Of a stretch of 59,968 bases of DNA, positions 32,938-59,968 are shown piece by piece. This stretch comes from Thermoprotei archaeon. Its GTDB lineage: Archaea > Thermoproteota > Thermoprotei > Thermoproteales > B15-G16. Both the position numbers and the translations under genes were made by a program. The stretch is taken from positions 1 through 59,968 of the forward strand of contig QMRC01000011.1 of NCBI GenBank assembly GCA_003649205.1, written 5' to 3'. The number at the start of each line of letters is the position of its first letter. Position 1 is the stretch's first letter. Below the pieces are notes generated by a model, which had not been told where the DNA came from, made no database searches, and saw only the letters and a list, made by a program, of their open reading frames with translations.

Positions 32938-32941
32938 ATCA

Positions 32942-34687: not shown

Positions 34688-34690
34688 GGT

Positions 34691-35254
34691 CTACCCACCG
34701 TACTTGGCATCTGTTAGTTCTTTGAGCACATTGTACATAGGTCTAAGGAAGTACATTACCAGAGCTAGCTCTGTTGTCGATAGCTCGGATATCTTCTCGA
34801 GTAGGTTCTCAACAGTTAAAGTACCCATACGTGGTACAGGACAATGTTGTGCTAGCCATTGCACAGTTGCGTAGAGAAATGCAGCATATCCAACGGCTTC
34901 ATCAAACTTTCCCTGTAACACACTTTTGACTTCTTCTATAGTTATCTTTCCATCCAGATACCCTGCTATAATGTCACATATACTGCATTCTACGCATCCT
35001 TGTCTATATTCTCTAACTTCTTTACCTAGCTTTTTGGCTATTTCTACTGGTACTCTAACTTTATCAGAGGCCTTGGCATATGCAAATGCTAAGGTAGCTA
35101 CAATACCTACATCCTCCATTAATTGTGGCAGCGTTCTGCATCGCGTACGGAATTTTTCACCATAATCCCGCTTATACTTGGCTAATTCATCAAATCGGCT
35201 TATTATTTCAAGGCAATGCTTTAAAGCGTCCTGCGATAACCTACGTATGGGCAT
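34691..35254 (-). CDS. cmr5: type III-B small subunit Cmr5
   Basis: FRTRCRTLPQLMEDVGIVATLAFAYAK, helical; position in the cmr operon. Confidence 0.85.
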   Translation of the reverse strand: MPIRRLSQDALKHCLEIISRFDELAKYKRDYGEKFRTRCRTLPQLMEDVGIVATLAFAYAKASDKVRVPVEIAKKLGKEVREYRQGCVECSICDIIAGYLDGKITIEEVKSVLQGKFDEAVGYAAFLYATVQWLAQHCPVPRMGTLTVENLLEKISELSTTELALVMYFLRPMYNVLKELTDAKYGG

Positions 35255-35260
35255 GCCTTG

Positions 35261-36286
35261 CTACACCCCAAGGAGCTTCACTATGCCACGACCTATCGTC
35301 TCATGACCTCCTAGGATTAGGTAGCCGCCTTCCTTCAGCTTTAGTTTCTCTGTAATGTACTCTTTGATCTCCTTCTCTCCTGGTTCTTTACCGGTTAGCT
35401 TCCTAAACTCTTCTGCCACATCTGCCTTTCTCACCATTGAGTATAGGAAAACTGTTACAAATATCGTATACTCTGGAACATTTTCCTCAAGCCAAGGACC
35501 TTCGTCAACTACCTTAATAGCCGGCTTGAGACGGACACGTGCTTGACGGATAATACTTCGCTCAATAATTTCACGACCAATTGTATCGGGAACTACTGCA
35601 AGACCAACTTCTGTCAATGTGCATTGCTTTGGTAGGTTATTTAGAAATGTATCCACTTCCTTTAGAGACCTTACCTTGAGCTTGAATTCTTCATTTAACA
35701 CAATTTCATTACCTATAGCTGTCTTTTGAAGGGCATTCGAGGTAACTATTGCAGTGTCTTCACTTAACTCTTGAGTAGTCTTTTCCAGCAATGCTTTAGC
35801 TATGTCGTAGTATCTCTTTGCGTCCTCACTACCATAGATGTCAAAATATAGCTTTGTATATGTTTTGAAATATCTTAGTAGTTGTGGTGTTGTAATATAT
35901 ATCCACACACCTCGCAGAGACCTAGCTGGAATTGCTAGCAACTTTCCCTCAAGTATGGCGATTGCACCTGTGAACATTTCTGTAACTCCACGTACTTCAG
36001 GAGGCGGACCAAAGAGAGCTTTAATTATAGGATTTCTGTTTGCTTCATTAATTGCCTCGTCTAACTTCTTACCATCTTTAATCAGCTTAGGTACTAATTC
36101 TGACACAAACCTTGCTCTCAATGGCCCCTTTAGACTCGATGGTGGTATCACTGGGTATCCAAACGCATCCCTCTGTATGGGTAGGTCAACTACACCTATT
36201 GCCCTTCCTGTACCCACGTGCACCGGTGTAATTGCCTCTATAAATACAAGAGAGGCTTCACGATACGTACCAGCGACCAAGCTCAA
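35261..36286 (-). CDS. cmr4: type III-B Cmr4 backbone RNase
   Basis: TPVHVGTG..VVDLPIQRD (catalytic Asp), PSSLKG, LGGHETIGRG. Confidence 0.95.
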   Translation of the reverse strand: MSLVAGTYREASLVFIEAITPVHVGTGRAIGVVDLPIQRDAFGYPVIPPSSLKGPLRARFVSELVPKLIKDGKKLDEAINEANRNPIIKALFGPPPEVRGVTEMFTGAIAILEGKLLAIPARSLRGVWIYITTPQLLRYFKTYTKLYFDIYGSEDAKRYYDIAKALLEKTTQELSEDTAIVTSNALQKTAIGNEIVLNEEFKLKVRSLKEVDTFLNNLPKQCTLTEVGLAVVPDTIGREIIERSIIRQARVRLKPAIKVVDEGPWLEENVPEYTIFVTVFLYSMVRKADVAEEFRKLTGKEPGEKEIKEYITEKLKLKEGGYLILGGHETIGRGIVKLLGV

Positions 36287-39600: not shown

Positions 39601-42600
39601 CCTCTAATACTTGTTTCAAGTGATCACATAGTTGATAAGGTTAAGAGAGGTGATAAGGTCTTTCAATGTTTGTTTCTGCTCCCTGGGCGTACATTGAGTA
39701 CTTCGGCTTCGGTTACCACACTTTCAATGTTTGTTTCACCGAGCTGATGTGTCAGTGGATTAAGGAAAATCTGTGAGATTTTTCTCTTTCAATGTTTGTT
39801 TCGATGCTGCAGCTGTTCGTGGAGACGGAGATGTTCGGTACAGTGGCTTTCAATGTTTGTTTCGCACGTGTACTTCCACATCACTCAGGAGTACATACTC
39901 GACCCACACAGTCTTTCAATGTTTGTTTCTCTACGTGAACCCACCTTAATCTTCTCCTTTTTCTCACTCATTCGGGGCTTTCAATGTTTGTTTCTGTAAA
40001 GGACCTAATACACACTTTCAGCCAACACAGCAGGAGGCTTTCAATGTTTGTTTCGATAGTAGCAATGCTGAGAGAAGGCTACAGTCCAAGCACAATCTTT
40101 CAATGTTTGTTTCGGCTCGTACTAGAGTACCTCATGTATGAGGGAACAGGAACAACACTCTTTCAATGTTTGTTTCTAGGCCACCCATTTGATGACCTAG
40201 AGAAGCTAGTTAGAGAATTCCTGCTTTCAATGTTTGTTTCGGAACAAACAAAGTTCTATGATGGAATTTCCGAGGAAATCAAGCTTTCAATGTTTGTTTC
40301 GGTAGAAGGTGATGGCTTTGTCAATACGTGAATCTAAAGTCACTTTCAATGTTTGTTTCTACGTATGCCCACGTTGTTTAGCAGAGCTCCAGTACGCAGG
40401 TCTTTCAATGTTTGTTTCACTAGGAGAATTAGGTACTGGGTCTTCAGGGCCATTGGCTGGATACCTTTCAATGTTTGTTTCTTTGCTTTACGGAAAAGTA
40501 TACACTGCAATAAAAGGACATATGATAATCTTTCCAGCTTTCAATGTTTGTTTCCCTGTTACAAAGACACTCAGAGAACATTTGAAGTTACCTCTTTCAA
40601 TGTTTGTTTCACTACAATGGCTGTGAGCCGCAGAGGACGTACATTGAACTTTCAATGTTTGCTTTCAATGTTTGTTTCGTTGCACGCGTTAATAAACAAG
40701 TGCCTTCTTGAGTTGTGCTTTCAATGTTTGTTTCGAGAGGTCTCTCAATACTTGTTGGTCTTCACAGGGATTATCGCTTTCAATGTTTGTTTCGGATTCT
40801 AGGATTAGGTTATATAACATGGACTGTGTTATCTTTCAATGTTTGTTTCAAGCAAATCAATGAGTTGCTGAGTGAGCTTAGGGAGCTCTTTCAATGTTTG
40901 TTTCCAGAGGAGAAAAAAGAGAAGAAAAAGAAAGTAATTGACCTTCACTTTCAATGTTTGTTTCAGCTCATAAAGTTCTTGTGTGGTTGCTAACTAAGGT
41001 AACTCCCTTTCAATGTTTGTTTCACTTCATTGCCCTAGTGAGGTTGTTCATGGAATTGCAATGGCTCTTTCAATGTTTGTTTCAACATGAAGTTGCGATT
41101 TTGAGAGATGGAAAGGTTATAGATCCTTTCAATGTTTGTTTCCAAGCTAAAGAATTAGTCAAAGAAAAAGAGCTAACAGTGATCTTCACTTTCAATGTTT
41201 GTTTCATTTGGGCGACCAACTGATTTACATTGTTCCTGAGAGACCCTTTCAATGTTTGTTTCGAGAAACTCAGACTTAGTAGGCTCGTAGTGGCTCACAC
41301 TTTCACCCTTTCAATGTTTGTTTCAAAAGAAAGGGATGCAAATAATAATTCACACCGAAATTGATTGCGGCTTTCAATGTTTGTTTCACAGGAAGTTATA
41401 CATTGCCGAAAGAGGGCATATGTTGATTCTTTCAATGTTTGTTTCAGGAACTGGGTGCTATTCGAGTGATGTCTGCTAGGCTCAAACTACCTGTTCTTTC
41501 AATGTTTGTTTCTCAGTAAGTACGGTAGAGGTGTACAGTGTACACCATTAATCATCTTTCAATGTTTGTTTCACGCAGTTCTGAGGCTACTGAGAGACCT
41601 AATGAAGTACGTCTTTCAATGTTTGTTTCACTAGCGTTTTTAACTGACAAGATAGTAAAGCTAGAAGACAAAGTCTTTCAATGTTTGTTTCTAAACTACC
41701 TACGAAAACTTTTCTCGTGAAGAAAATAGCTTTCAATGTTTGTTTCCAGTAGTTGATAAGTTGCGTAGAGTAACAACAGAATTACTAACTTTCAATGTTT
41801 GTTTCACAGGCTTGTTGAGGAATATAGAGGTGAGGTGTACGAGTTCTTTCAATGTTTGTTTCGACTTATCTCTAACCTGTCTATCTCTGTGTCTGTTAGT
41901 CCTCTTTCCTTCTTTCAATGTTTGTTTCGGTGCTTTCATTGCTGGTGTGGGTAGGGAGTACCTATTCCTCTTTCAATGTTTGTTTCACCCAAGTGAGTTT
42001 ACTGATGCAGTGAGGAAGCTAGCTGTGGTCTTTCAATGTTTGTTTCGTACAGGATCCTAAAGCGTTACGAAAGTGACCAGGAGTTTACTTTCAATGTTTG
42101 TTTCTAGGGACTTGATAGCGATTACGACACTTGCGCTACTGTTAATCCTTTCAATGTTTGTTTCGATATACTGTTAGCGACACGATGTTTGCTATGTTCC
42201 TCAAAATGTGCTTTCAATGTTTGTTTCAAGGAAGCTACGCTACAAGGCATTAAGTCACAGGTAGATACTTTCAATGTTTGTTTCGAACAGCAGGTTAAGC
42301 TACTCGAAGAACTCAGGAGAAGAGACTTTCAATGTTTGTTTCAGAAGTACCCAGAGAGAGAGGAGGAAGAAAAAGAGTCCTCATGGTACTTTCAATGTTT
42401 GTTTCAAATATCCAACAACAAGAGACGAGGAAGAACAGGAAGGGCTCTTTCAATGTTTGTTTCAACCAATGAGGGTTACAGTGGTTTACGAGTACGGGTG
42501 CAGTAACCTTTCAATGTTTGTTTCCAGAAGTACCGAGCAGACATCATAGTACCTGTACTACCACTATCAACTTTCAATGTTTGTTTCAAGTCTCATAAGA

Positions 42601-43540
42601 GTACGAAACGAATTGTCCTCAAAATTCGTCTTTCAATGTTTGTTTCGAGAAAATTGTAGTTCTGCTCACTTCACTACTTCTTACCTTAACTTTCAATGTT
42701 TGTTTCACGGAAGCTCTAGCTGATGTCCCTGTTGCAGTGTATCAAGACGGTACTTTCAATGTTTGTTTCTTTGCTTTACGAGAGGTGAGTAGACGTGAGG
42801 TACAGGGAATTACTTTCTTCACTCATGCTTTCAATGTTTGTTTCAAGAGATAGAGAGGGAACTAAAGAACATCGAAGACATGACCTTACCAAGCTTTCAA
42901 TGTTTGTTTCAATTCATCATAGGTGTCGAAATCTACAAACGTAACTTGTACTTTCAATGTTTGTTTCCATGAGTTGCTTCACCTAGTGTTTGCAGAGAAA
43001 CAGAAACGTCTTTCAATGTTTGTTTCGCGTGAACTCCTAGCTAAGTGTCTAGAAGAATTGAAAGCTAACTTTCAATGTTTGTTTCACGAGCTTTTTTCAT
43101 ACATCTCTAACCTCATTTCCAAGTCTCGTTCTCCTTTCAATGTTTGTTTCTTGAACCAGCCAAGGAATTTCGAATAATAGAATATACGAATTTGGTACCT
43201 TTCAATGTTTGTTTCATTCAGTTCTACGTACTCAGCACAGAGCAAGTAATCAGAATCTTTCAATGTTTGTTTCGGGTAGACAGTAATGGTGGAACAGACA
43301 TTGATTACGCTATTAGGGTCTTTCAATGTTTGTTTCGTCGGTACGGTTCCTGTCGTGATTACTCACGTATATGTCCTCGATGTGGTTCTTTCAATGTTTG
43401 TTTCACTCGACAACGGTACGGAAATCAAAGAGCTGAACTATGAGGTAAAGGGTAACTTTCAATGTTTGTTTCTTTGCTTTAAGCAATACAAATAGCAACA
43501 ACATACAGAGACACTTAAATACACTTTCAATGTTTGTTTC
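39601..43540 (-). CRISPR. CRISPR array, 17-bp repeat CTTTCAATGTTTGTTTC (crRNA sense GAAACAAACATTGAAAG), about 64 exact repeats
   Basis: exact repeats counted by eye from 39660 to 43524-43540; unique spacers mostly 38-51 nt; degenerate terminal repeat CCTCTAATACTTGTTTC at 39601; ATTGAAAG 3' end on the minus strand. Confidence 0.95.
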
Positions 43541-48045: not shown

Positions 48046-48816
48046 CTAGGTTACGAGTCTCTTAATCCACTTCCTCAATGTTAATTCACCTGTTTTTGTA
48101 TCTCTTACCAGTACTCCTCTCTGCTCCAGCATCTCTATGTACTTATCACTTAGTTGTTCCCACTTACCTAGTTCTGGTACTAACTGTATTGGTACTGTAG
48201 GTAGCTCGATTACCTCCTTCATGAGTTCGTGTATGTAGTAGACCTTGTCTATTCCTGCTAGACAGGCATAGAGGTAGAGCACTGCTGTTTCTGGTTTGAA
48301 TCCACCTGTTGCATTGAGTAGTACTCTGTAGCCTGCTCTCCTCAGTTGAGGGATGGCTGTGGTTAGTATGTCTAGTAGGTTGTGAATACCCTCCTCGAAG
48401 TCTATACCTAGTTTCTGAACTCTAGTAGCTTCGACATACGGTATGTTCCTTATCTGTCTTAGGTAGTGCTCCAGTATCTTTGCACAGAAGTAGCATGTTC
48501 CGCTATCTGTTGTGATTAGGAGTACGTACTCTACCCTACCTTTTGCTAGGTAGTTCCACATTGCATTTAGCTCTGCGCTGTACTTTCTGGGGTTTTGTGT
48601 GAGTACTTCATATGCTCTCTTGAATTCTGTTGTTCCTGGTGATGCCTTGTTACCTGCTTCTACGTCATCTGGTGAGTTGGGTAGTGATCGTGACCATCGT
48701 ACATATGGTTCACCTAGTTCCTGAGCTATGTTCCTTACAATGCTCGTACCTACTGTAACTACGTGTGCTTCAGCACCTACTCTACTAGCTCTAGGAGGTA
48801 TGTGGGGATATGCCAA
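48046..48816 (-). CDS. APE2256/SSO1393-family CARF protein (ring-nuclease-like), second copy
   Basis: VTVGTSI, SAELNA, TTDS, LNATGGFKPE, YYIHE..VIELP. Confidence 0.85.
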   Translation of the reverse strand: MAYPHIPPRASRVGAEAHVVTVGTSIVRNIAQELGEPYVRWSRSLPNSPDDVEAGNKASPGTTEFKRAYEVLTQNPRKYSAELNAMWNYLAKGRVEYVLLITTDSGTCYFCAKILEHYLRQIRNIPYVEATRVQKLGIDFEEGIHNLLDILTTAIPQLRRAGYRVLLNATGGFKPETAVLYLYACLAGIDKVYYIHELMKEVIELPTVPIQLVPELGKWEQLSDKYIEMLEQRGVLVRDTKTGELTLRKWIKRLVT

Positions 48817-48878
48817 GGTTCTTCACCCACTACTTAAGTTACTGTGTGTTTCTTGTCAGTGAACCCAATGCTGGTGCT

Positions 48879-49946
48879 TCATTGTCGCTTAGTTTCCTGA
48901 GATGTGAATTCTCTTCGAATGGTCTTGGATAACTTTATCCAGTTCAGGAGTTTGGTGTCTGGTGTAAGCAGTAGCATGGATGGTTCTTCATATGTTTCCT
49001 TTGGTTGAGGTAGTACGTACGTTGTTAGGTCTTTCCTCACTACTTCACCTACTTTGATCTTCGTGATTAGGTAGGTGTAGGTTAGTGCTGTTAGTAACCA
49101 CGATAATGCTCTGTATGTCGTAGTGTGTGTCTTACCCAGTACTTGATCTGGTTTGGGGTACCTTATGAGTGCTACGTGTATGCCGTACGTACTTGCTACC
49201 TGTGCTAGCTTGGTATCTGCCGTTATGAGGTATGGTTCAAGTACTAGTGCATTCTTCCTAATGTACTCTCCACAGCTCCGTACTATAACTACATCGCTAC
49301 TACACTCCTTATCCTCAATTGAAGGGATCTCTATGTGTGGTGTACAGCTTCTCTGTAATTGAATTTCGTAGAGTGCAAGCTGTGCTCTTCTACCTTCCAG
49401 TCCTGGTACTCCCTGAAGTATTGTCATTACCTTGGTAGGTAATCCAGATATTGTCTGTTGTATAGTGCTTAATTCCCTACCTACTCTAGATCTCGTGACT
49501 GCGTTTGCTATCTCTTCAAGTGCTTTACTGCAGATTCCTGTTAGTGTGTATCTCCAGGTATCTGTAGGTAGTTCCTGAAGGAGCTTGTGTACAGTACCTG
49601 TGTAGTACGCTGATGTATCGAAGTAGAGAATGGGTTTTCTGATGCTTTTTCCACTGTACTTCAGTACTTCATCTCTCAACGATTGTACTGCTGTATCGCT
49701 CACTATACCTGAGTACAGTAGACAGCACCTAGCTACATCTCTACTACGTTGACTTAACCAAGTTGGTTCTCCACGTAGATTCTCAATGTAGATCCTTGGA
49801 ACGTCAGTACTTAGGTCAATTGTCGCTAGGTCTATCCAGTAACCTCTATCTGGTATGGAGAGTATGAGTTCGCTACAATTCCTACGTGTGTAGTATGTTA
49901 GTACTGCTACTAGGTCACTAGTCGTTACGGTTGTTTCATTGAACAT
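48879..49946 (-). CDS. PIN-domain-like protein
   Basis: LYFDTSAY, ALEEI, SSDVVIV, LITADTKLAQVA. Confidence 0.7.
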   Translation of the reverse strand: MFNETTVTTSDLVAVLTYYTRRNCSELILSIPDRGYWIDLATIDLSTDVPRIYIENLRGEPTWLSQRSRDVARCCLLYSGIVSDTAVQSLRDEVLKYSGKSIRKPILYFDTSAYYTGTVHKLLQELPTDTWRYTLTGICSKALEEIANAVTRSRVGRELSTIQQTISGLPTKVMTILQGVPGLEGRRAQLALYEIQLQRSCTPHIEIPSIEDKECSSDVVIVRSCGEYIRKNALVLEPYLITADTKLAQVASTYGIHVALIRYPKPDQVLGKTHTTTYRALSWLLTALTYTYLITKIKVGEVVRKDLTTYVLPQPKETYEEPSMLLLTPDTKLLNWIKLSKTIRREFTSQETKRQ

Positions 49947-49948
49947 GG

Positions 49949-51805
49949 TTAGGATAGTAGCTCAATCTTCACTCTAAGTGGTATCTTTCTGTTTGGTGCT
50001 GCTAGTCCTGATATCAGTGCTTCACCAATGTCTAGGTCAGGTAGCATCTCTACGTCTTGCCTAATGACAGACTCACAGCTTCTCTGTATCTGTTCTTGAT
50101 CGTAGAAGTTCGTTACTCTGAGCGCTACTATTGTGCTGCATTGTGATAGTACAGTCATGTCTACTCTAGCTGGTCTCTGAGATATTATACAGAGTCCAAG
50201 TCCGTACTTCCTACCTTCAGTAGCTATCTTCCTCAAGATAGGTAGTGTCGTGCTCTCTCTAGCCTCTTCACCTGCTGGAGCATACCTATGAGCTTCCTCA
50301 ATGATGAGAAGCAGTAGGTCACCTTGTTCAGGTCTGTGTACCTCATCGAGATCTGGAAGTTCAGTACCTAAGCTCTTACTCAGCTCCTTGATGTAGTGTG
50401 TTGGCTTTGTTACACAGACTGTGAAGATCTTGTTTAGTAGGTGCGTGATAACTGGTTCAGGGTCTTGAAGTACTCTATGGAGGTCTATGCAGGTTACTGA
50501 TCTCGGCTCTAGTATCCTCAGTATGAGTGCTGTCTCTATGGTGTGTCGGTAGTAGGTTGATACGTAGGTGCTCTCTATGATTCTAAGGTCACGAGCAACA
50601 GAAGCTATTGACTGTGGGTGGTAACCTAGCTTCCTAAGTTCATTAAATACATCTCCCGACCCTAGTAGGAGCTGTGTTATCATCGATACATCATAGCAGT
50701 TCTCACCGAGGATCTGCTGCATACCAGACTCGAGATACTGCGTAGCTATGTCCTTAACTATGTCACTGAAGTAAGCTGATACACCCCTCCTAATAGCTAG
50801 TAATGTGCTAAGTGGTAGTAGTCTGGGTAGGTATAGGTTCATGAGGAGTACCCTACTACCTAGGATCTCCTTAACGAAATCTACCTCACTTGATAGTACA
50901 GCTGGGTTCTTAACATCAATCACCGCAATCTCTTCGAGAGGTACCTTAACTTGCTCGCTCAACTGCTCACTCAATGCCTTCAGCTCACTCTCTGAGGCAT
51001 ATGGTACTAGCACAGTTATCTTGAGATCACTACGACCTAGATCACTCCACAATTTAGATATTAGCGGTGTTGTACCACTCTCAACTAGTCCAAGACCTGT
51101 GTACTGACCCATGGGATCTAGTACCAGTACCTTACCCCTACTGTAGCTCTTGATGAAGCCATAGATCAGTCTCTTAGCTGTCTCCGTCTTACCAGCACCT
51201 GTCTGCGCTAGTATAGCTACGTGGTAGCACAATTTCTTAGGTACGAGGTAAACCTTGACATTTCTCTCATACGATAGGGTCCCCATGTAGATACCACACT
51301 TCATGTACTCATCTCCAAGTGACTCTGTGTGAATTACCTTCTCGAGAATCTCTGGACTCGGTCTAAGGACTAGAGATGTTGGTTGTGGTGGTATGTCTAC
51401 ACTGACTAGTTTCCACCTACAATCTTCTTCCTTCCTCAGTACACCTAGTAGCTGCAGCGTAGCTGTATAGGACTGTAGTTGCCTAGCTATCTGACTACCG
51501 GGTACCTGCTCAATTACCTTCCTAATTATCTCCGTTATGGCTTGAAGCTCTGTACGCTCCCTAGCTAACTGAACTAATTCAGATACTGAGGGTTGAACAG
51601 GAGATTGATATGGTCTTAAGTTAATTACCCTACAGAGGTAGTGCCTACTAACTGTCCTATCCTCAATGAAGAGGAGAGCACCTAGACCAACAACCTCACC
51701 AAACCCCATGTATAGCTGAGCGTAGACTGTTCTATGATCTCGTACTCTAGAGACAATACCGATACCAATACCTAACTCAGTACTCTGAGACATACCCAAA
51801 GACAT
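49949..51805 (-). CDS. herA: HerA-like ATPase/helicase
   Basis: N-terminal HAS-like barrel, HVAILAQTGAGKT, LDPMGQY, LIIEEAH, EGRKYG, SQRP. Confidence 0.9.
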   Translation of the reverse strand: MSLGMSQSTELGIGIGIVSRVRDHRTVYAQLYMGFGEVVGLGALLFIEDRTVSRHYLCRVINLRPYQSPVQPSVSELVQLARERTELQAITEIIRKVIEQVPGSQIARQLQSYTATLQLLGVLRKEEDCRWKLVSVDIPPQPTSLVLRPSPEILEKVIHTESLGDEYMKCGIYMGTLSYERNVKVYLVPKKLCYHVAILAQTGAGKTETAKRLIYGFIKSYSRGKVLVLDPMGQYTGLGLVESGTTPLISKLWSDLGRSDLKITVLVPYASESELKALSEQLSEQVKVPLEEIAVIDVKNPAVLSSEVDFVKEILGSRVLLMNLYLPRLLPLSTLLAIRRGVSAYFSDIVKDIATQYLESGMQQILGENCYDVSMITQLLLGSGDVFNELRKLGYHPQSIASVARDLRIIESTYVSTYYRHTIETALILRILEPRSVTCIDLHRVLQDPEPVITHLLNKIFTVCVTKPTHYIKELSKSLGTELPDLDEVHRPEQGDLLLLIIEEAHRYAPAGEEARESTTLPILRKIATEGRKYGLGLCIISQRPARVDMTVLSQCSTIVALRVTNFYDQEQIQRSCESVIRQDVEMLPDLDIGEALISGLAAPNRKIPLRVKIELLS

Positions 51806-53372
51806 ACCTCCTAGCTGTGAAATATCTGTGTACTAATGTAAGTGGTATTACCCTAAGTCTGAGGTACCTCTCGAGTACGTTAATGAACTCCCTCTCACTA
51901 GGTCTAATCCAGGAGTAGTAGTCAGCCATTAGTATGGGTGCAGGATACCCATGTACATTCACCTTGGATAGTGCAAGCACGTACCTAAGCGCTCTCTCTA
52001 GTTCGTCTTTCCTCAACTCTAGGTAGGCTGGGTACTCAACCCTTATGGGTGCTCTAATGGTTAGTAGTGACAGTGCTTTTCTAAGGGTACCTGGTTGGGC
52101 ATGTACTTCTCCTAGGATCTTGCTCTTGATGTAGTCTAGTGATTTAATCTCATCTAGGAATAGGTACGTGAACCTAATGTCGTATGGTCCTGCAAGTCCT
52201 CTATCCACGCTGTACACTATGTTACGTAGCTCTGTAGTGTAGTAACCGTAGTCTAGAGCTATCCTCGATAGTGAGTATGCTGTGTTTGGTAGCTTATCTA
52301 CATGAAACTCAACCAACTTACTACGCTTGAATCGAGGTGCTGATGACTCAGGTATTCCGTCTATGAGCAAGCCCTCCGTCGCCATCATGGTTAGTAGCTC
52401 CGCATCGGATATCCGTAGTTTAGTTCTGTGCTCTCTCACGTACTCCATAGCTACCCTAGTAGCGACGTAGTGCTCATCCACCGTAGCTCCTCGATAGGCC
52501 TCTATTAGCTGATTAAGCGTATCAAGCACGTAGACCGCGTGCTCAGTAATAGGTTCCTCATAGTACCTAACAACAGCATCCTCAAGCATGTTGCTAGCTC
52601 TCCTCACATCTCGTTGTAGCTCACGTACTAGTGACAGAACGGAGTACCTAATGAATAACCTACTCCTCCTAATATCTTCGAGAACCCCCATTGGGAATAC
52701 ACAGCTATCTCTACCTAATTCGAGGAGCTCATGTAGTATTGCTACGATTATCCTGGACGATACGTACCTTCTCCTACCTCCCTCCTCACTAGGCCTCACT
52801 GCACTGTAGTCATCCCTTACCTTTCTAAGGAACTCTACCACATCATCTTCATTCCAGCCAGCAACCATGAGTATCCTACGTAGAAGATCCTCAGGTATGT
52901 CGTAGGTACTCCTATCGTACTGAACTAACTGATGTACTAGTGGTCCATGTCTCAACACGAGAATCGGTCCAGTGAAGTATTTAGCAAGTCTCTCCTCTCT
53001 AGCTACCTTGAGCATTGTCGCTACTTCGAGTAAGTACCTGGCAGCTTCGTGAAATTCCTCCTGGGAGTAGAGTAGAATTGCTACAGGACCTATCCTGTCA
53101 CTCCATGGAATTCTGATCTCTTCACGAACTTCCCCACCAAGGACCTTCCTGCTGTAGATAGCTATCTTTGTTGCAGATACGTACTTCTCCTTTGAGAATA
53201 CGTACCCAGCATCAATAGCGTAGACGCCAGGAACCTCTTCACCGTGAAGCACCTTGAGTAAGGTATCTAGGTTAGTGAGGAGTTTGCTGAATCTCTCTAT
53301 AAGGTGTCGAGACCATGCTAGGACTGTGTACAGTACTGGGTCTAGTACTATGGGTTGTGGAAGAGAACTCAC
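51777..53372 (-). CDS. nurA: NurA-like nuclease (divergent)
   Basis: YAIDAG, LRHGPL, PIRVEYP, HGYPAPILMAD; overlaps the herA start. Confidence 0.75.
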   Translation of the reverse strand: MSSLPQPIVLDPVLYTVLAWSRHLIERFSKLLTNLDTLLKVLHGEEVPGVYAIDAGYVFSKEKYVSATKIAIYSRKVLGGEVREEIRIPWSDRIGPVAILLYSQEEFHEAARYLLEVATMLKVAREERLAKYFTGPILVLRHGPLVHQLVQYDRSTYDIPEDLLRRILMVAGWNEDDVVEFLRKVRDDYSAVRPSEEGGRRRYVSSRIIVAILHELLELGRDSCVFPMGVLEDIRRSRLFIRYSVLSLVRELQRDVRRASNMLEDAVVRYYEEPITEHAVYVLDTLNQLIEAYRGATVDEHYVATRVAMEYVREHRTKLRISDAELLTMMATEGLLIDGIPESSAPRFKRSKLVEFHVDKLPNTAYSLSRIALDYGYYTTELRNIVYSVDRGLAGPYDIRFTYLFLDEIKSLDYIKSKILGEVHAQPGTLRKALSLLTIRAPIRVEYPAYLELRKDELERALRYVLALSKVNVHGYPAPILMADYYSWIRPSEREFINVLERYLRLRVIPLTLVHRYFTARRYVFGYVSEY

Positions 53373-53460: not shown

Positions 53461-54519
53461 TTACTCACACCTAACTACGTAGGATATGTGTGGTTCACTA
53501 ACGGGTAGAGTGAGTACGTACTTACCGCATCCAGCAGCTGCTAACTGACCAACACCCATGTACTGACCAAGTATCAGTAACTGAAGAGCTAGCATACTAA
53601 TGCTTTTTCTCCAGAAGGATTGCTGCACCTCGTACACGAAGTAACCCCTAATGAATGTTCCGAGAACCCTCCTCTCATCACTAGCAATCATGTACTTACG
53701 TAGAACAACCTTACTCCTATGTGCGTATACCAACTTCGCATTAGCCCTAACAGCATCCCTAAGCTCTCTAGCTTCAAGCACTGAGAGTACTTGACCAACC
53801 CTGTGAAATGCAGCTAATTGACTATACCTCCTAGCTAAATTCATCACAATGGCGTGTAGTGGCGGCTCAGTTACTACCTGACGATTGTGCACTACCATGG
53901 TTGGTGTCGTGAAGTTCAGGACTATGTACCTAGGCCTTAACTCCCTAAGAGCAATTGCCTTCTTCTCAACTCTCCTCAGTAAATCATCACTTAGCACGGT
54001 AGTGGGTATTGGTTCCCTGATGATACCAGCATCGTCCCTATAGACTACCTGTACTGAACCCGTAAAGGGGTCAATTCTGAGAATTCTTGAGATAAAGAAC
54101 CTCCTCCTCTCACCATACCTAGCATCCATACCTAGACCCAACATACCACACTTCAGTAGTGATAGTATGATCACTGGCTCACATCTAAGCTCAATCAAGT
54201 ACCTAGGTGCTAGCAAGTAGAAGCCAAATACTATCTCACGACCACGGATGATAGCTGGTTCAACTGAGTAAGGTCTCGATACACCAGCTCTTGCACCTCT
54301 CTTAGCGAAATCAACATCATAGTCACAGCTCCTACTCTCGAAGAAGTGGTAGTAGATGCACCTCCCTCTCATGCAGCAACCACTGCAGTTTCGAGAACCA
54401 GTAACACAGCACACACTACGTAGAGCAGAACCAATCATCCCTCTAGTAGCAAATCCAGTGAATCCCCTCGGTCTAGTGTAGTCTCTAGCTAGAACACCAT
54501 GTACGAGGTACAGAAGCAT
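53461..54519 (-). CDS. cas6: Cas6 endoribonuclease (Cys-rich type)
   Basis: GFATRGMIG, CC..C..C...C.Y cluster, FTTPT, G-loop GVGQLAAAGCGKY. Confidence 0.85.
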   Translation of the reverse strand: MLLYLVHGVLARDYTRPRGFTGFATRGMIGSALRSVCCVTGSRNCSGCCMRGRCIYYHFFESRSCDYDVDFAKRGARAGVSRPYSVEPAIIRGREIVFGFYLLAPRYLIELRCEPVIILSLLKCGMLGLGMDARYGERRRFFISRILRIDPFTGSVQVVYRDDAGIIREPIPTTVLSDDLLRRVEKKAIALRELRPRYIVLNFTTPTMVVHNRQVVTEPPLHAIVMNLARRYSQLAAFHRVGQVLSVLEARELRDAVRANAKLVYAHRSKVVLRKYMIASDERRVLGTFIRGYFVYEVQQSFWRKSISMLALQLLILGQYMGVGQLAAAGCGKYVLTLPVSEPHISYVVRCE

Positions 54520-54563: not shown

Positions 54564-55247
54564 GTGGAGTTCGGTGATGGTGATGGTGTGAGGCTTGGTT
54601 TACTCCCCGTTACAGTGTACGCTAGGGATCTCGTTGATTACCTCATATGCCCTCACCGCATATACTTAAGGAGGTACCTGTACCTACGTGGAGTAGTTAC
54701 GGAGTACATGAGTGTTGGTGGTGAGGTACATAAGCTCCTGTACATGTACCTTCAGGGACGTGACGTTGGGAGGGAGCTGGTTAGGTACGGGATTGATGTG
54801 GGTAAGTTACGTGAGGTCTATAGTGAGCTTAGGAAGTTAGGTGATGTGGAGTGTGAGGTCGAGGTAGGGTATGGGCCGCTTGCTGGTTCCATAGATTTGC
54901 TCGCTGGTGGGGTCCCTGTAGAGGTTAAGTACAGTACGAGACCTAGGTTCGGTGATGTGGTGCAGCTTGCATTCTACGTACTCTTACTGGAGCTCTCGAA
55001 GGGAAGGAACATATCTCGAGGTTACTTACTGTACCTCCCCTCCTGTAATCTCATTGAGATCAAGGTTGAGAGTTGGTTAAAGAGACTTGTTCTCGAGTTT
55101 TGTAAGGAGGTTCAACTCATTAAGTTAGGTCTCGTAGATTCTAGTCCTCGGTCGAGAAGAGCTTGCAAGGGGTGTGAGCTAGGTATGTACTGTAAATTCC
55201 GTGGTGAGGGGGGTGCCGAAGAGAGGTCTCTGGCTTCTCGTAGGTAG
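54564..55247 (+). CDS. cas4: Cas4 exonuclease
   Basis: YLICP, GGEVH, GSIDL, VEVK, QLAFY, CKGC.....C. Confidence 0.9.
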   Translation: MEFGDGDGVRLGLLPVTVYARDLVDYLICPHRIYLRRYLYLRGVVTEYMSVGGEVHKLLYMYLQGRDVGRELVRYGIDVGKLREVYSELRKLGDVECEVEVGYGPLAGSIDLLAGGVPVEVKYSTRPRFGDVVQLAFYVLLLELSKGRNISRGYLLYLPSCNLIEIKVESWLKRLVLEFCKEVQLIKLGLVDSSPRSRRACKGCELGMYCKFRGEGGAEERSLASRR

Positions 55248-56133
55248 GTACAGGGTAGGTGCTGAGAGTGAGCACCTCTACGTTCAGGAGCTTGATACCG
55301 GTAAGCTAGTGTATAGGAATGTTGCTCCTAGATTGTTGAGTAGTGTCTTGAGTACTGACCAAAGTCTCTTCACATCATCTGCTATCTGTCTACTAACGAG
55401 ATTTGAAGTACCATTGGTAGTTCTCTCTCGTGACCTTACTCAAGTTCTCTACTACGTTTACTGTGATGTATCTCCAGGGCTCTACAGCGAGATACTACTC
55501 AATCAGTACCAAGCTCAGGTAACCGACCTCATGCTTACGCTTCAGAAAAATCTACTAACTACAGCACTCAATTCCATAGCTAAAGCACTCGCCATCTACG
55601 GTACACGCCTAACTAGGCTTCTCCCAGTAATTCGAGCGTATAGAGCGCAGGTGGAGTGTAGTGAATTAAGTGAGGTACCTGAGCTAGATCAGGAATTCCT
55701 CAGTACCTTCCTTGAGTACGTGGCTAGAGAGCTAGATCTAGAACCTAACTACGTGAGTGATCTACATCAGAAACTACGTACCATTGCCTGTGGTGAAGTA
55801 CTTGCTGAAGTAGTTAAGGTAGGTCTTCAACCAGACATTGGATTAAGAACTGAACCGCTGGCCCTACTTGACGTACTTAAACCACTTACCTATATACCGA
55901 CACTTAAGACAGTACTTGATGTGTATGTAGTGAGTGGTGAGGTACCTAACCTACGTAATGTAGTCAAGAAGCTCTATGAAAACATATACTGTACACGTTA
56001 CAGGTGTAGTGATCAGGTAAGTAACTACGTGTGGTTCTTGAAGCAGTACCTAAGGAAATTACGTGAGTGGTTTAAAGAACTAACATCAGAGGTACCTACT
56101 CTAGAGCTGTATCCAGTGCTAGAGAAACCATAG
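55201..56133 (+). CDS. cas1: divergent Cas1 homolog, probably catalytically impaired
   Basis: N-terminal beta domain (FTSSAICLLTRFEVPLVV), NQY, GLQPDIGLRT matching GLDPxxGFLH without His, LALLDVLKP; follows cas4. Confidence 0.7.
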   Translation: MVRGVPKRGLWLLVGRYRVGAESEHLYVQELDTGKLVYRNVAPRLLSSVLSTDQSLFTSSAICLLTRFEVPLVVLSRDLTQVLYYVYCDVSPGLYSEILLNQYQAQVTDLMLTLQKNLLTTALNSIAKALAIYGTRLTRLLPVIRAYRAQVECSELSEVPELDQEFLSTFLEYVARELDLEPNYVSDLHQKLRTIACGEVLAEVVKVGLQPDIGLRTEPLALLDVLKPLTYIPTLKTVLDVYVVSGEVPNLRNVVKKLYENIYCTRYRCSDQVSNYVWFLKQYLRKLREWFKELTSEVPTLELYPVLEKP

Positions 56134-57297
56134 TTTCCTCGATTCAATAGCTACATCACCTAGACCTAACTTCGCAAATGTAGTTACCCTATGCGGGTAC
56201 AGGACAGTATTTGGTAGCTTAGTCCTGAGGATACAGGTACCCCAGTGAAGCTGAGCTAACCAATAGACATCTCTGGAGAGTGCTACAACATCAACATCCT
56301 CCCAAGACCAAGGCTCAACAACCTCCACAACAACAGGTCTCGGAGTAGCACCAAGGTGAGTAACCTCAGCATCGGGAATACCTAGAGTAGCAACAACAAC
56401 CCTACTACTACCCAGCCTAATCCAGGTACCTCTCCAAGGTTGCTGAGTTCTACCACCCATGAGGTTCAGCAACCTAATGGGTACAGACTTCATGACAGAA
56501 ACCATGACATACCTATCAATACCGAGATCACGAAGAACCTTCCTCAAACTATGAACCTCAGTAAAGTGGTATGGACCATCCCTATGAATGACAACTAAAC
56601 CACCACGGTACCTATCCTGGAGTACTTCAGCAACTAGATCGCCAACTTCAGGAGCAATCCTCTCAAGCGATGACCTCCTACAGAACCACTCAGTACAACC
56701 ACTAGACCTATCGTAGACGACAGTAGACACAACACCACCACCCACATCAAAACCGATGTAGAGATCACCGTAGAGACCACTGCGAACAGCCCAAGGAATA
56801 CCACCACACTTAGCAAAGACACCAACAGCAACATTAGCCAATACAACACCTCTAGACCTCAGGTACTTAACCGTGCTGTGAGTAACCATTTGACTGGGAA
56901 TACCATGACTAGCAATAACCTGCTTGAGGGGTATGTATGGATCGTCAGAGAACTGAACAGTGAATTCATCAGGGACGGTACACAGCACGAGATCAACATC
57001 GTGGATAGACCTAGCTAACTCAATAGCCTCACCATATGAGCTAAACTCAAGAACATCGAGAACTGTAACCTCACAACGAAACCACTTATCCAAACCACCG
57101 AAGACACCAACACCCTCAATTAAGTTCCTGAGAAACTCCCTAAACTCAGACCTCAAATCCCTATAAACCATACACAACATTGTTAAGCTAGGTAAGGACC
57201 TAAATGGACCATAACCAAGTTTGAATGCTTGCAGCGGATCTAGAGCGGTACCACTAGAGAACTCGAGTACAGGTCTAGAGAATATACCCCACCTCAT
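56119..57297 (-). CDS. ago: short prokaryotic Argonaute (MID + PIWI), about 392 aa
   Basis: MID PYIPLK..PSQMV..AKCGGIPW; PIWI YIGFDVG, IHRDG, K, P.RG, TPRP, LHW, KLPNTVLYPH; C-terminal LWFL; start at ATG 57297. Confidence 0.9.
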   Translation of the reverse strand: MRWGIFSRPVLEFSSGTALDPLQAFKLGYGPFRSLPSLTMLCMVYRDLRSEFREFLRNLIEGVGVFGGLDKWFRCEVTVLDVLEFSSYGEAIELARSIHDVDLVLCTVPDEFTVQFSDDPYIPLKQVIASHGIPSQMVTHSTVKYLRSRGVVLANVAVGVFAKCGGIPWAVRSGLYGDLYIGFDVGGGVVSTVVYDRSSGCTEWFCRRSSLERIAPEVGDLVAEVLQDRYRGGLVVIHRDGPYHFTEVHSLRKVLRDLGIDRYVMVSVMKSVPIRLLNLMGGRTQQPWRGTWIRLGSSRVVVATLGIPDAEVTHLGATPRPVVVEVVEPWSWEDVDVVALSRDVYWLAQLHWGTCILRTKLPNTVLYPHRVTTFAKLGLGDVAIESRKLWFL

Positions 57298-57352
57298 CAA
57301 GTAAGTAACTACGTGAGGTATCGATATCAGTAACCACACAGGTACACACTCT

Positions 57353-58009
57353 GTGAGTAGACTTAGATACGAAGTACTTAGGTACCTTCTGAGTAGGGAC
57401 AGAGCTACGTTAAGTGACCTACTCGGAGTATTTGGTCCACCGATAGTGGATGTTCTTGAGAAGCTGAAGAGGGAAGGGTACGTAGTAATTGAAGGTAATA
57501 CCGTTAAGTTGAGGGAATTAGCTAGGGAGGTTCTCACAGCACAGATACTTAAAGGACCAAAGCTAGTTCTCATTCCAAGAAACACCGAGAGCGCCACAGG
57601 AGGACCTACACTAGGTAGCTTCGCTGTGAAATTACCATCGAGAAACTACCGTGGAGTACCAAGGATGGAGATTACGGTACTACATCTAAGCTACGTAACT
57701 ACTGAGCAGTTGCTGGAGCTAGCTATCGACATCAGAAAGGTGTACAGTACCTTCCCGAACTGCGTGAGAGAACTTCAGCACCTAACTACACTCGTGAGGT
57801 ACGTGAAAGCACATAGAAATGAACTTATTAGGTCAATAGCACGTGAAATCGAGGCATTTATAGCATCAGTACGGTCATACCTCAGTAGGTGGAACTCACT
57901 AAAACCAGAGACCAGGGAGGAAGCTATCAAGTACGTGAGGAGCTACGGTGAGAAGCTGAGTAAGTTGATTACAGAGCTCTCGATAGTTGGTTCTAAGAGC
58001 GGTAATTAA
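57353..58009 (+). CDS. wHTH-containing protein divergent from ago
   Basis: ATLSDLL...VLEKLKREGYVVIEGNTVKL wHTH, then unknown helical domain. Confidence 0.65.
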   Translation: MSRLRYEVLRYLLSRDRATLSDLLGVFGPPIVDVLEKLKREGYVVIEGNTVKLRELAREVLTAQILKGPKLVLIPRNTESATGGPTLGSFAVKLPSRNYRGVPRMEITVLHLSYVTTEQLLELAIDIRKVYSTFPNCVRELQHLTTLVRYVKAHRNELIRSIAREIEAFIASVRSYLSRWNSLKPETREEAIKYVRSYGEKLSKLITELSIVGSKSGN

Positions 58010-59043
58010 CTAGAGGTTAACCAGTTCTTCAAGCTACGGCTCAACTTAATCCACCTACTCAAATAATCACTAGATCCAGTCTTCACAATGATACTCAATG
58101 GAGGGTCACTACAGCAATCTAAGCTCCTAGATATCGGTCCAGGAACCATCACAAACTCAAGATCTCTCGAACGAACCTTAATAGCTGATAAGAGGTACGT
58201 CAGTACAGTGAGTACAGTACCTACAGACTTGAAGCCTATATCGACCTCAGATGGTATCTGCTTTGGAGTAACGAGCTGAATAGGAAGACCGAGTAGATCA
58301 CTAGCAGAAGCAACGTCTTCCCTCGATGTTATTAGGATCGGTGTCACTCCTATACCGAACTGTGCTCTAATAGCTCTAGACAGTCTAAAGTAGAGACTAA
58401 ATACACCAATACCAACACCAATACCCAACGTGACCTCAGTAATGGGTAGTACCTTAGATGCATTGAGTAGATCGTGAAGTCCCAGAATAGTACGAGCTAA
58501 CTCGACATCTATTAAGTACTCACTAACCCTAAGACCAAGAGACTTAATGAAGTTCACCTGCAACTCATCAGGTAGAGGATTGTGTTCGTGAAGCAGCCTC
58601 ACTAGGTTCTCCTTAACATGATCAGGAATAGCAAAGTACGTAGTCTGTATCCTAGCTCTAAAGCTATGAGCTACAGAGAGCCAGTACCTAGCAAGAGAGT
58701 GACAGCAACCATACCACAGAGCTGTCTCATCAAACACTACAATAGGTAACCTCGAACCAGGTAGTGCGTATAGAGACTCGAGAAACTTAGCAAAGGAGTA
58801 CTTCAAGTCAGCAAAAGCAATATCCTCACCACTAAAGTGAAGACTCCACCACACAGCAACATCAAGTGGTAGTGAGCACCAAGACCAAGTACCTCCTCGA
58901 CTTCTCACTAACCTAAGTCTCTGTCCACTAAGTGAAATACGTAGTATAGACTCATCACCACATGAAATCTCAAACTCATCACTAACACTAAGCAAGTACG
59001 TAACTACAGGTAGTAAGTCACTAGACCTAATTCGTATTATCAT
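58006..59043 (-). CDS. degenerate PIN-like protein, paralog of 48879-49946
   Basis: VVFDETAL, ILITSREDVA; C-terminus LSRWIKLSRSLK vs LLNWIKLSKTIR. Confidence 0.6.
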   Translation of the reverse strand: MIIRIRSSDLLPVVTYLLSVSDEFEISCGDESILRISLSGQRLRLVRSRGGTWSWCSLPLDVAVWWSLHFSGEDIAFADLKYSFAKFLESLYALPGSRLPIVVFDETALWYGCCHSLARYWLSVAHSFRARIQTTYFAIPDHVKENLVRLLHEHNPLPDELQVNFIKSLGLRVSEYLIDVELARTILGLHDLLNASKVLPITEVTLGIGVGIGVFSLYFRLSRAIRAQFGIGVTPILITSREDVASASDLLGLPIQLVTPKQIPSEVDIGFKSVGTVLTVLTYLLSAIKVRSRDLEFVMVPGPISRSLDCCSDPPLSIIVKTGSSDYLSRWIKLSRSLKNWLTSS

Positions 59044-59531
59044 ACCTTCCTCTCGAGAATAACTATGTTTGAGTAGTACTTAGGAATATCAGTGAAAGGT
59101 AGGTTCTCAAACTCACGACTTCTAAGCGATAGATATGTCACGTACTTAGCATCGATATCGGTAGCTAACTTGTAGAGAGCTATGGACATGGGCTTAGTAC
59201 CAGCAGTAACATCAACAACACGAACTAGATCTCCATACCTCTCTACAACCCTCTTACGGAGCTTACTCCAGATATCGTAGATATCAAATGGATCGACCTC
59301 AACATAATCAACTTCAGGAACTTCCCTACCAAAGTACGTAGCAACCTCACGGAGACAACGCCCAATAGAGTCAATGAACCTAATAGTGTTGGAACTAGCT
59401 CCAAGCAAGACATACTTGATACGTAACCTACGTAACTCATCATGCATGAGGTAGTGAGCATACACATTAACAACAACAATAGGTGTAGCACCAACACAAG
59501 TAATTAACACAGCATTTGAATCCGAACTCAT
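59040..59531 (-). CDS. stand-alone CARF protein
   Basis: LITCVGATP, VDVTAGTKPMS, VTYL. Confidence 0.8.
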   Translation of the reverse strand: MSSDSNAVLITCVGATPIVVVNVYAHYLMHDELRRLRIKYVLLGASSNTIRFIDSIGRCLREVATYFGREVPEVDYVEVDPFDIYDIWSKLRKRVVERYGDLVRVVDVTAGTKPMSIALYKLATDIDAKYVTYLSLRSREFENLPFTDIPKYYSNIVILERKV

Positions 59532-59818
59532 AGGACGAACTCCCTCTCCAAAGACTCCCTTTCACCGTAATCCTCATGACAAATAACCATAGATCTACTA
59601 GAGCAAGAACTACACAGAGGGATAACCAGTACGTGAACCCTGTACATGCTAGACAAGACCTTCAACCTAAGTACTAATTCACTAAGTCTACCTGGAGGTA
59701 TATCAAGCTCAAAGACACTGTACTGAACCTCACAACCACCAAAATCACGAAGAAGTTCCCTCAACCTAACTCTACACTCCTCAGAATCCGTATCGTAGCA
59801 GACAATAACCCTAACCAT
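59528..59818 (-). CDS. cas2: Cas2
   Basis: VIVCYDT, LRDFG..VQYSVFE, IPLCSSC. Confidence 0.9.
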   Translation of the reverse strand: MVRVIVCYDTDSEECRVRLRELLRDFGGCEVQYSVFELDIPPGRLSELVLRLKVLSSMYRVHVLVIPLCSSCSSRSMVICHEDYGERESLEREFVL

Positions 59819-59968
59819 ACAGGAGATATCTAGAGACCGAACCTTGATATATCTTTAAGTAAATCTCAGTAGCGATGGTTAGGTACTACAGGATAAGGAA
59901 GGTAGGTAAAACACTAACTATCGAGGTAGACCTAGCTACATTGAGAAAGTACTTACCGAGAGAACGAA

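Follow-up and report, generated by a model that had tools for sequence, protein, structure and literature searches.

The contig QMRC01000011.1 of a Thermoprotei archaeon (GenBank assembly GCA_003649205.1), analysed on its forward strand over 59,968 nt and here called the window, was found to carry a gene for a 392-aa Argonaute lying among cas genes. As judged from structural models, the product is very probably the MID-PIWI half of a split, slicing-competent Argonaute of the long type, whose partner, here designated AgoN, is encoded by a separate gene. The pair is best read as a conserved accessory of archaeal CRISPR loci, and a split slicer Argonaute serving CRISPR at or near the acquisition of spacers is, for the evidence as a whole, the explanation that we consider probable. 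A prediction made earlier for this gene (the original prediction) had been of a truncated slicer tied to CRISPR; the catalytic tetrad and the link to cas genes, which proved to be conserved, were borne out, and the stand-alone truncated Argonaute was not. The two genes are placed as follows.

56119-57297 (stop codon included), minus strand: MID-PIWI subunit of the split Argonaute (P0001, 392 aa), from Pfam, HMMER, the AlphaFold2 (AF2) model and alignment.
59875-59968, plus strand, the rest on contig G000:C4: first 31 codons of AgoN (P0153, 385 aa, N-L1-PAZ-L2), from profile and overlap.

Homologs in the family share the N-terminus MR(G/W)GxFxRPVL with the 392-aa product, and the start at 57297 is taken to be correct because they begin at this same sequence and because the longer frame overlaps a helix-turn-helix (HTH) gene. 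That longer frame, of 492 aa and reaching 57597, was rejected as the gene; its extra 100 aa are of low complexity and antisense to the winged-helix gene at 57353-58009 (plus strand). A Piwi domain (PF02171) was recognised in the 392-aa protein by Pfam (E 2.2e-10; 40.8 bits, cut-off 28.9), and the best sequence matches in the PDB were catalytic long prokaryotic Argonautes (pAgos), namely CpAgo (E 1.5e-17) and CbAgo (E 1.2e-16; HMMER). Long-B and short pAgos matched far more weakly (RsAgo 1e-4, SPARSA Ago 8e-4, SPARTA Ago 0.01), the short pAgos spanning E 8e-4 to 0.055. Near relatives of the protein are already in pAgo catalogues, since PADLOC model PDLC02436 (460 positions) matches it at E 6.5e-51, and published pAgo lists may hold members of the family unremarked as 'truncated long' pAgos.

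The AF2 model of the protein had a predicted local distance difference test score (pLDDT) of 95.6 and a predicted template modelling score (pTM) of 0.93. Structure prediction and alignment, which the original prediction had named as a check, placed residues 1-392 on CbAgo 339-748 (Z 38.0, rmsd 2.5, 369 aligned residues; VIA-align), and also on CpAgo 342-751, TtAgo 311-685 and KmAgo 307-737, while AfAgo chains gave Z values of 35.6 to 36.7. The open reading frame (ORF) of about 392 aa, which had been described as having no N or PAZ domains, is confirmed and begins at the equivalent of CbAgo 339. The protein is thus a member of the Argonaute/PIWI superfamily in which a MID domain precedes the Piwi domain.

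The DEDH tetrad, earlier called apparently intact, is made up of D184 (IGFDV), E212 (SLER), D240 (HRDG) and H369 (LYPH), and it aligns with the catalytic positions of the long pAgos CpAgo and CbAgo. In the HMMER alignments D184 and D240 fall on the Asp positions that read Ala in the deposited CbAgo and CpAgo mutant chains, E212 on the E of 'qngEk' in CpAgo and CbAgo, and H369 on their fourth-position Asp. The canonical 5'-phosphate pocket of the MID domain, predicted as Y-K-Q-K, was located at Y121, K125, Q136 and K163, and the protein ends in a conserved C-terminal WFL. Y-K-Q-K is present in 16/16 full-length family sequences and D-D-(H/D) is retained in 12/16; the four without the full site (P0006, P0009, P0010 and P0015) have lost either two to three positions together or the second Asp. 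As read from the alignment, such correlated losses fit an active site that is functional and has now and then been given up, and the split Argonaute, with its DEDH site aligned intact, looks able to cut.

Family loci were found by a scan with an alignment of nine family sequences in genome and metagenome collections; 26 loci and L094 were collected, 18 of them distinct at 90% identity (L, G, C and P numbers denote loci, genomes, contigs and proteins). Clustering of neighbouring ORFs disclosed an unannotated protein of about 420 aa, AgoN, in 14 of the 18 distinct loci. It is immediately upstream of the Piwi gene in nine distinct loci, with a gap or overlap of only a few bases in seven (L092, L096, L097, L101, L103, L106 and L008/L105); in L009/L100 it adjoins the Piwi gene and its ORF is cut at the contig edge, and in L098, the twin of L097, it occupies two ORFs. 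The remaining AgoN loci have the order AgoN - Cas1 - Cas2 - Cas1-like - Piwi.

A profile search of the organism's own genome with AgoN gave one gene (E 8e-18), at the very end of contig C4, where its neighbours are a canonical Cas1 gene and a second CRISPR array. Over its final 123 bases (59846-59968) the window matches the reverse-complemented end of C4 without a mismatch, and the joined order, Cas2 (minus), AgoN (plus), Cas1 (plus), is that found in L007, L086, L088 and L101. Furthermore, in run X1 there is a contig of 16,465 nt that spans 57000-59968 and extends 3,238 nt past the window end, which fits the 3,224 nt between that end and the first CRISPR repeat on C4; run X1 may be the source sample, so that its support for the join is not independent. 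On the strength of the 123-base identity, the conserved gene order and the X1 extension, we argue that the window and C4 adjoin, and therefore that the AgoN gene starts at 59875, at 2.6 kb from the start of the Piwi gene. Past the window end the locus continues, on C4, with AgoN, Cas1, a leader and the second array.

The AgoN profile has weak but collinear matches to TtAgo 84-179 (E 0.3) and to the PAZ domain 3o3i (E 0.064), and positions 21-192 of 742 in PADLOC long-pAgo models match AgoN residues 103-269 (E 1.9e-7). Among the 401 sampled genomes of the phylum, AgoN was found in six (E ≤1e-60) and the Piwi family in six (E ≤1e-90), with both in five; the pairing of AgoN with the Piwi protein is supported by this co-occurrence (5 of 6 genomes). 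Two proteins of the window were considered as the missing N-terminal half and rejected: the 345-aa protein (58006-59043) does not resemble the AgoN profile (hhalign probability 0.4%), and the 531-aa protein (51777-53372) reached 0.1% against the same profile and had no BLASTP match to the 531-aa AgoN of L008.

The AgoN gene is interrupted in L006 (14791-16037, minus strand; G216:C1:556038-557281), where ORFs of 194 and 154 aa are seen with one TAG inside the match; in L090, a metagenome near-twin of the L006 copy, the gene is uninterrupted and encodes 416 aa. Of the unsplit relatives seen, the nearest is a fused 749-aa long pAgo in G367 (L168 947-3193, minus strand; G367:C18), which matches the AgoN profile at 1.2e-17 and the MID-PIWI profile at 1.3e-32; its neighbours are a tyrosine integrase and housekeeping genes, and no cas genes.

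The model of AgoN, built from a 15-row alignment, had pLDDT 80.4 and pTM 0.66, and its best Foldseek matches were MpAgo (E 3.6e-12), KmAgo, CpAgo, CbAgo and TtAgo. Residues 100-385 of the model aligned with CbAgo 2-338 (Z 15.2, 274 aligned residues), KmAgo 1-304, CpAgo 8-342 and TtAgo 7-313, with Z of 15.7 to 15.2 overall (VIA-align), the alignment to TtAgo 7-313 spanning PAZ. Together, the AgoN and MID-PIWI models tile full-length CbAgo, CpAgo, TtAgo and KmAgo, with the break in linker L2. What had been taken for a truncated, self-sufficient short Argonaute is accordingly replaced by a MID-PIWI protein whose N-L1-PAZ-L2 half is the separate 385-aa AgoN. Residues 1-99 of AgoN (window 59875 onward and L167 16134-16430) form an additional domain at the N-terminus (about 100 aa) that the AgoN family conserves; it lies outside every Argonaute alignment and is predicted to touch the N-terminal strand of the Piwi protein.

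Prediction of the AgoN/MID-PIWI complex gave a pass, with an interface score (ipSAE) of 0.89 against 0.01 for the best of three controls; the mark for a pass is reached by 58/80 solved complexes and 2/110 mismatched pairs. Contact agreement between runs was at least 58% and partner pLDDT at least 82. On the Piwi side the predicted interface comprises residues 1-29 and 272-326, and on the AgoN side residues 1-9, 76-106, 187-254 and 346-350. This pass is read as likeness and not as binding, because the solved Argonautes and AfAgo/AfAgo-N resemble the AgoN/MID-PIWI pair.

Linkage to cas genes was assessed by counting neighbours over the 18 distinct loci, clusters being named from the Pfam matches of their members.

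Any cas-type gene: 17/18.
Cas2: 12/18.
Cas1: 11/18.
Divergent Cas1-like protein: 10/18.
Cas4: 7/18.
CARF or ring-nuclease type: 7/18.
HerA: 6/18.
Cas6-like: 5/18, and one more by Pfam.
Cmr effector genes: 2/18.

The lone locus without a cas-type gene is a 2.9-kb contig that holds just the two Argonaute genes. A lack of conserved cas linkage among homologs, which according to the original prediction would have spoken against it, is therefore not what was found. In the window, the Piwi gene had been placed between cas4/cas1 and CARF/cas2 with an overlap at the cas1 3' end; this position and the overlap are correct, the 3' ends of the two genes overlapping by 15 nt, while the 'cas1' is a divergent Cas1-like paralog. 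The surrounding genes are listed below.

28487-36286, minus strand: type III-B (Cmr) effector module with Cas10/Cmr2, RAMPs and Cmr5 (family matches).
39660-43540, minus strand: CRISPR array with 64 exact 17-nt repeats (repeat search).
49949-51805, minus strand: HerA-like ATPase, 618 aa (Pfam, NCBIfam).
51777-53372, minus strand: NurA-like protein, 531 aa, upstream of HerA (ESM Atlas).
53461-54519, minus strand: Cas6-like protein, 352 aa, with homologs adjoining the Piwi gene in L088, L091, L093 and L094 (Pfam).
54564-55247, plus strand: Cas4 (Pfam, NCBIfam).
55201-56133, plus strand: divergent Cas1-like paralog, 310 aa (hhalign to the Cas1-like family profile).
57353-58009, plus strand: HTH-like (winged-helix) protein, 218 aa, divergent from the Piwi gene (ORF).
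58006-59043, minus strand: 345-aa protein with no family match, probably not core (ORF).
59040-59531, minus strand: small CARF protein, 163 aa (Pfam, NCBIfam).
59528-59818, minus strand: Cas2, with the AgoN gene divergently oriented, an arrangement shared with L007, L086, L088 and L101 (Pfam, NCBIfam).

The 310-aa protein encoded next to the Piwi gene has no match in Pfam or NCBIfam. It aligned with the profile of the Cas1-like family at 95.6% in hhalign (E 1.3e-8), and that profile matches the Cas1 structure 4n06 (E 6.8e-8) with a gap at the His of GFLH, where the window protein reads GLRT. By HMMER the 310-aa protein scored 2.6e-8 against the Cas1-like profile, no better than ordinary Cas1 proteins. 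It is probably a divergent Cas1-like protein and not an active integrase, as far as these sequence comparisons go. Strong matches to the Cas1-like family (E ≤1e-34) occur in 3/401 genomes, and the Piwi family is present in all three. Members of the Cas1-like family are about 270 aa long and usually found beside canonical Cas1 and Cas2 (for example L006 12729-13595, L007 4323-5162 and L086 2726-3532).

A pairing of HerA with a NurA-like protein is found repeatedly beside the Piwi gene, namely in the window, L007 (6454-9071), L091, L102/L104 and L005. The NurA assignment is an ESM Atlas lead, with a score of 0.91 and 194 shared features for the 531-aa protein of the window and of 0.95 and 217 shared features for a family of about 350 aa adjacent to HerA in four other loci. 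These NurA-like proteins have no Pfam match, and PDB profile searches with the HerA neighbours of about 350 aa gave nothing meaningful.

An exhaustive HMMER search with the Piwi protein over 1.84 billion representatives returned 517 matches at E ≤0.001. At E ≤1e-30 there were 21, counting the query's own cluster, and all were of 415 aa or less; from E 5e-22 downward the matches were mostly proteins of 545-903 aa. A word-based homolog search returned two proteins for the Piwi protein and, for AgoN, only itself. In a midpoint-rooted FastTree of 102 MID-PIWI sequences without named references (fragment P0023 dropped), the Piwi family was monophyletic on its own long branch and separate from a clade whose members are inactive and about 430 aa long. 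The family is rare, being present in 2/61 genomes of relatives, namely the own genome and that of a genus mate, and the hosts of its loci are labelled Thermoproteota or Thermoprotei, Jordarchaeales and Baldrarchaeum, that is, Thermoproteota and Asgard archaea.

From these elements a mechanism can be proposed. AgoN, contributing the extra N-terminal domain, N, L1, PAZ and the start of L2, would assemble with the MID-PIWI protein into a bilobed Argonaute; the Y-K-Q-K pocket and the carboxylate of the C-terminal WFL would hold a guide phosphorylated at its 5' end, and the RNase H-type site D184-E212-D240-H369 would cut the strand paired with this guide. Assembly, guide holding and cleavage are put forward because they are established for long pAgos. 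Guide-directed and guide-independent cutting of invader DNA, with end processing by Cas4 and HerA-NurA, could then give short DNA that would serve both as guides for the Argonaute and as prespacers for Cas1-Cas2, and the Cas1-like protein would, going by gene neighbourhood alone, link the Argonaute to integration. A role at the level of DNA, in spacer acquisition or close to it, drawn only from the gene neighbourhood, is a reasonable if still tentative proposal; it is favoured because the companions are enzymes of DNA ends and integration and because the pocket is of the 5'-phosphate type. Possible, though doubtful, is a stronger form in which the split Argonaute, an inactivated Cas1-like protein, Cas4 and HerA-NurA would make up a dedicated front end of archaeal CRISPR adaptation, with prespacers made by the Argonaute handed to Cas1-Cas2 and with its halves flanking the integrase genes as they assemble with their products. 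If true, this would amount to guide-primed spacer acquisition for type III loci, in which cutting is guided by small DNAs or by earlier immunity.

Several observations weigh against a split Argonaute with a role in adaptation. The adaptation role is guilt by association, and defence genes cluster for other reasons too; in the Asgard loci L008 and L096 the pair is beside Cmr effector genes, not Cas1/Cas2. No AgoN was seen in the available sequence of 4/18 distinct loci, including L005 with its 10-kb flanks, and among the 401 genomes G373 has the Piwi family and no AgoN match. AgoN of this organism has a PAZ region shortened by about 30 residues relative to the other family members, and the contig join draws on the 123-base overlap and synteny, not on a read-level bridge. 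The pass of the predicted complex may reflect the model's memory of solved Argonautes, AfAgo/AfAgo-N (8ok9) among them, and in the tree the family branch lies outside the large long DED(D/H) clade, beside it, on a topology that has no named references.

The same genes might be explained otherwise. We regard it as unlikely that the split slicer is an autonomous, DNA-guided innate defence that shares its island with CRISPR-Cas and has no mechanistic coupling to it. Long-A pAgos do act alone in other organisms, according to the part of PMC12094033 available, the gene order around the Piwi gene differs between loci, and the fused relative of G367 is away from cas genes; yet cas-type genes lie within a few kb in 17/18 loci from Thermoproteota and Asgard archaea, at ≤40% identity to the query, Cas1, Cas2 and the Cas1-like gene stand between the Argonaute halves in four distinct loci (L007, L086-88, L091 and L106) as well as in the window/C4, and the three genomes with strong Cas1-like matches all have the Piwi family. 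It is quite unlikely that the pair works at the interference stage, loaded with small RNAs that derive from CRISPR RNA (crRNA) or from type III systems and cutting the invader. The 5'-phosphate Y-K-Q-K pocket of 16/16 members is not the 5'-OH pocket of MpAgo, which is moreover absent from the 23 PDB sequence matches of the MID-PIWI protein and from its top Foldseek matches, and adaptation genes, not effector genes, are the commonest neighbours; this outweighs the type III-B Cmr genes found at or near the pair in the window locus and two Asgard loci, the place of MpAgo as best Foldseek match of the AgoN model, and the description of MpAgo-like proteins, in the portion of PMC6299218 at hand, as the one pAgo group known from CRISPR loci.

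Very improbable, finally, is the view of the original prediction that the truncated MID-PIWI protein slices alone without N or PAZ domains. The cognate N-L1-PAZ-L2 gene is present in 14/18 loci and 5/6 genomes, and the conserved N-terminal strand of the Piwi protein (residues 1-29) is a predicted contact of AgoN, even if the 392-aa protein is confidently folded by itself in AF2 and AfAgo alone is reported to bind guide-target duplexes (PMC6299218 and PMC10954474, as partly available).

A CRISPR-accessory Argonaute acting near acquisition can be compared with pAgos for which parts of the published descriptions were at hand. MpAgo-like pAgos (Marinitoga piezophila and Thermotoga profunda; long-A, MID-OH) have a catalytic PIWI domain and are encoded in type III-B CRISPR loci beside cas1/cas2 (PMC6299218, in the part available). 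In the same part of PMC6299218, CRISPR-associated pAgos are described only for this bacterial group of single-chain proteins with a MID-OH pocket, and 'Argonaute family proteins' are listed as linked to CRISPR only with reference to MpAgo in the accessible text of bioRxiv 10.1101/270033. The pair described here resembles MpAgo in its CRISPR locus next to cas1 and cas2 and in the best Foldseek match of its AgoN model; in contrast to the bacterial, single-chain MpAgo with its 5'-OH guide pocket, it is archaeal, encoded by two genes, has a Y-K-Q-K pocket and is accompanied by a Cas1-like paralog, Cas4 and HerA-NurA.

Split pAgos are described, in the portion of PMC10954474 available, for inactive long-B proteins such as AfAgo and for short pAgos. 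AfAgo of Archaeoglobus fulgidus is inactive there, its partner AfAgo-N has no PAZ domain, and the operon holds effector genes, not cas genes; as in the present pair, a MID-PIWI protein and a separately encoded N-terminal lobe jointly resemble a long pAgo. Here, however, the tetrad is intact by alignment, the alignment of the partner spans PAZ, and the halves are often separated by cas genes. CbAgo, CpAgo and TtAgo are closest by sequence and structure, with the same MID pocket and a DEDX site, and their chains are tiled by the two subunits; each of them is one chain, mostly stand-alone, whose fourth tetrad residue is D, whereas the present enzyme takes two genes, has H as its fourth residue and bears a further domain of some 100 aa at the start of AgoN. 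The short pAgos (SPARTA, SPARSA, SPARDA and SiAgo) are likewise MID-PIWI-only proteins, comparable in size and fold (query-normalised Foldseek TM 0.75-0.80), but they combine an inactive PIWI domain with an APAZ-effector or Aga1/Aga2 partner, and no such partner was found among the neighbours of this tetrad-bearing protein. No TIR, Sir2, APAZ, nuclease-APAZ or membrane effector was recognisable among the neighbours in Pfam, NCBIfam or PADLOC, in agreement with the original prediction. In cyanobacterial long-A systems an active pAgo is co-encoded with the Cas4-family nuclease ACE1 (PMC12094033, in part), and Cas4 is near the Piwi gene in 7/18 loci; ACE1, likened here by description, is an Argonaute accessory outside CRISPR, while the present Cas4 occurs with Cas1, Cas2 and arrays.

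In the accessible portions of PMC6299218, PMC11217426, PMC10954474, PMC13477220, PMC12094033, PMC9097488 and bioRxiv 10.1101/270033, no account was found of a pAgo that is both split and tetrad-bearing and lies in CRISPR adaptation modules, the supplementary pAgo and operon lists of PMC6299218 and the Asgard Argonaute list of PMC11217426 lying outside this search; the term 'split pAgo(s)' appears in a single paper. CRISPR-located single-chain bacterial Argonautes and split inactive Argonautes are known separately; the present family unites the two traits, with a catalytic site that appears intact by alignment, among archaeal adaptation genes and in company with a Cas1-like paralog. Should its coupling to CRISPR prove real, the two nucleic-acid-guided immune systems of prokaryotes would be joined by a direct mechanistic bridge, a link suspected since MpAgo and never shown, and a programmable nuclease that is thermophilic and by nature two-piece would become available. 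Whenever a 'short' or 'truncated' Argonaute has an intact active site, a search for a detached N-PAZ gene is advisable, even at a distance of several genes or across a contig break.

As for the other genes of the window, no homologs of the 345-aa and 218-aa neighbours were found in other family loci, and neither has a family match in Pfam, NCBIfam or PADLOC. Further CARF and ring-nuclease-type genes are present on the Cas6-like/HerA side of the locus. A small CARF gene followed by one for a protein of about 350 aa recurs, in the window (58006-59531 and 48046-49946, both minus strand), in L094 (3468-4954) and in L106 (2542-4087); one member has a weak PIN_4 match, and between the 345-aa protein of the window and the 355-aa one there may be a distant paralogy. 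Cas10/Cmr2 of the Cmr module (28487-32053, minus strand) is unusually long, at 1188 aa, with gaps between the parts matched by Pfam.

The second array, in L167 (G000:C4, 8613-13112), is beside Cas1 and AgoN and has the same repeat as the array of the window, in 73 exact copies. The repeat of both is only 17 nt, CTTTCAATGTTTGTTTC, the 12 positions on either side carrying no information, and the spacers are 38-58 nt. Its reverse complement ends in ATTGAAAG, which we take to be the usual archaeal 8-nt crRNA handle, and the minus strand is for this reason taken as the one on which the arrays are read. In other family loci the repeats are ordinary ones of 30-37 nt beginning CTTTCAAT, and the own genome also contains an array with a 25-nt repeat (L084).

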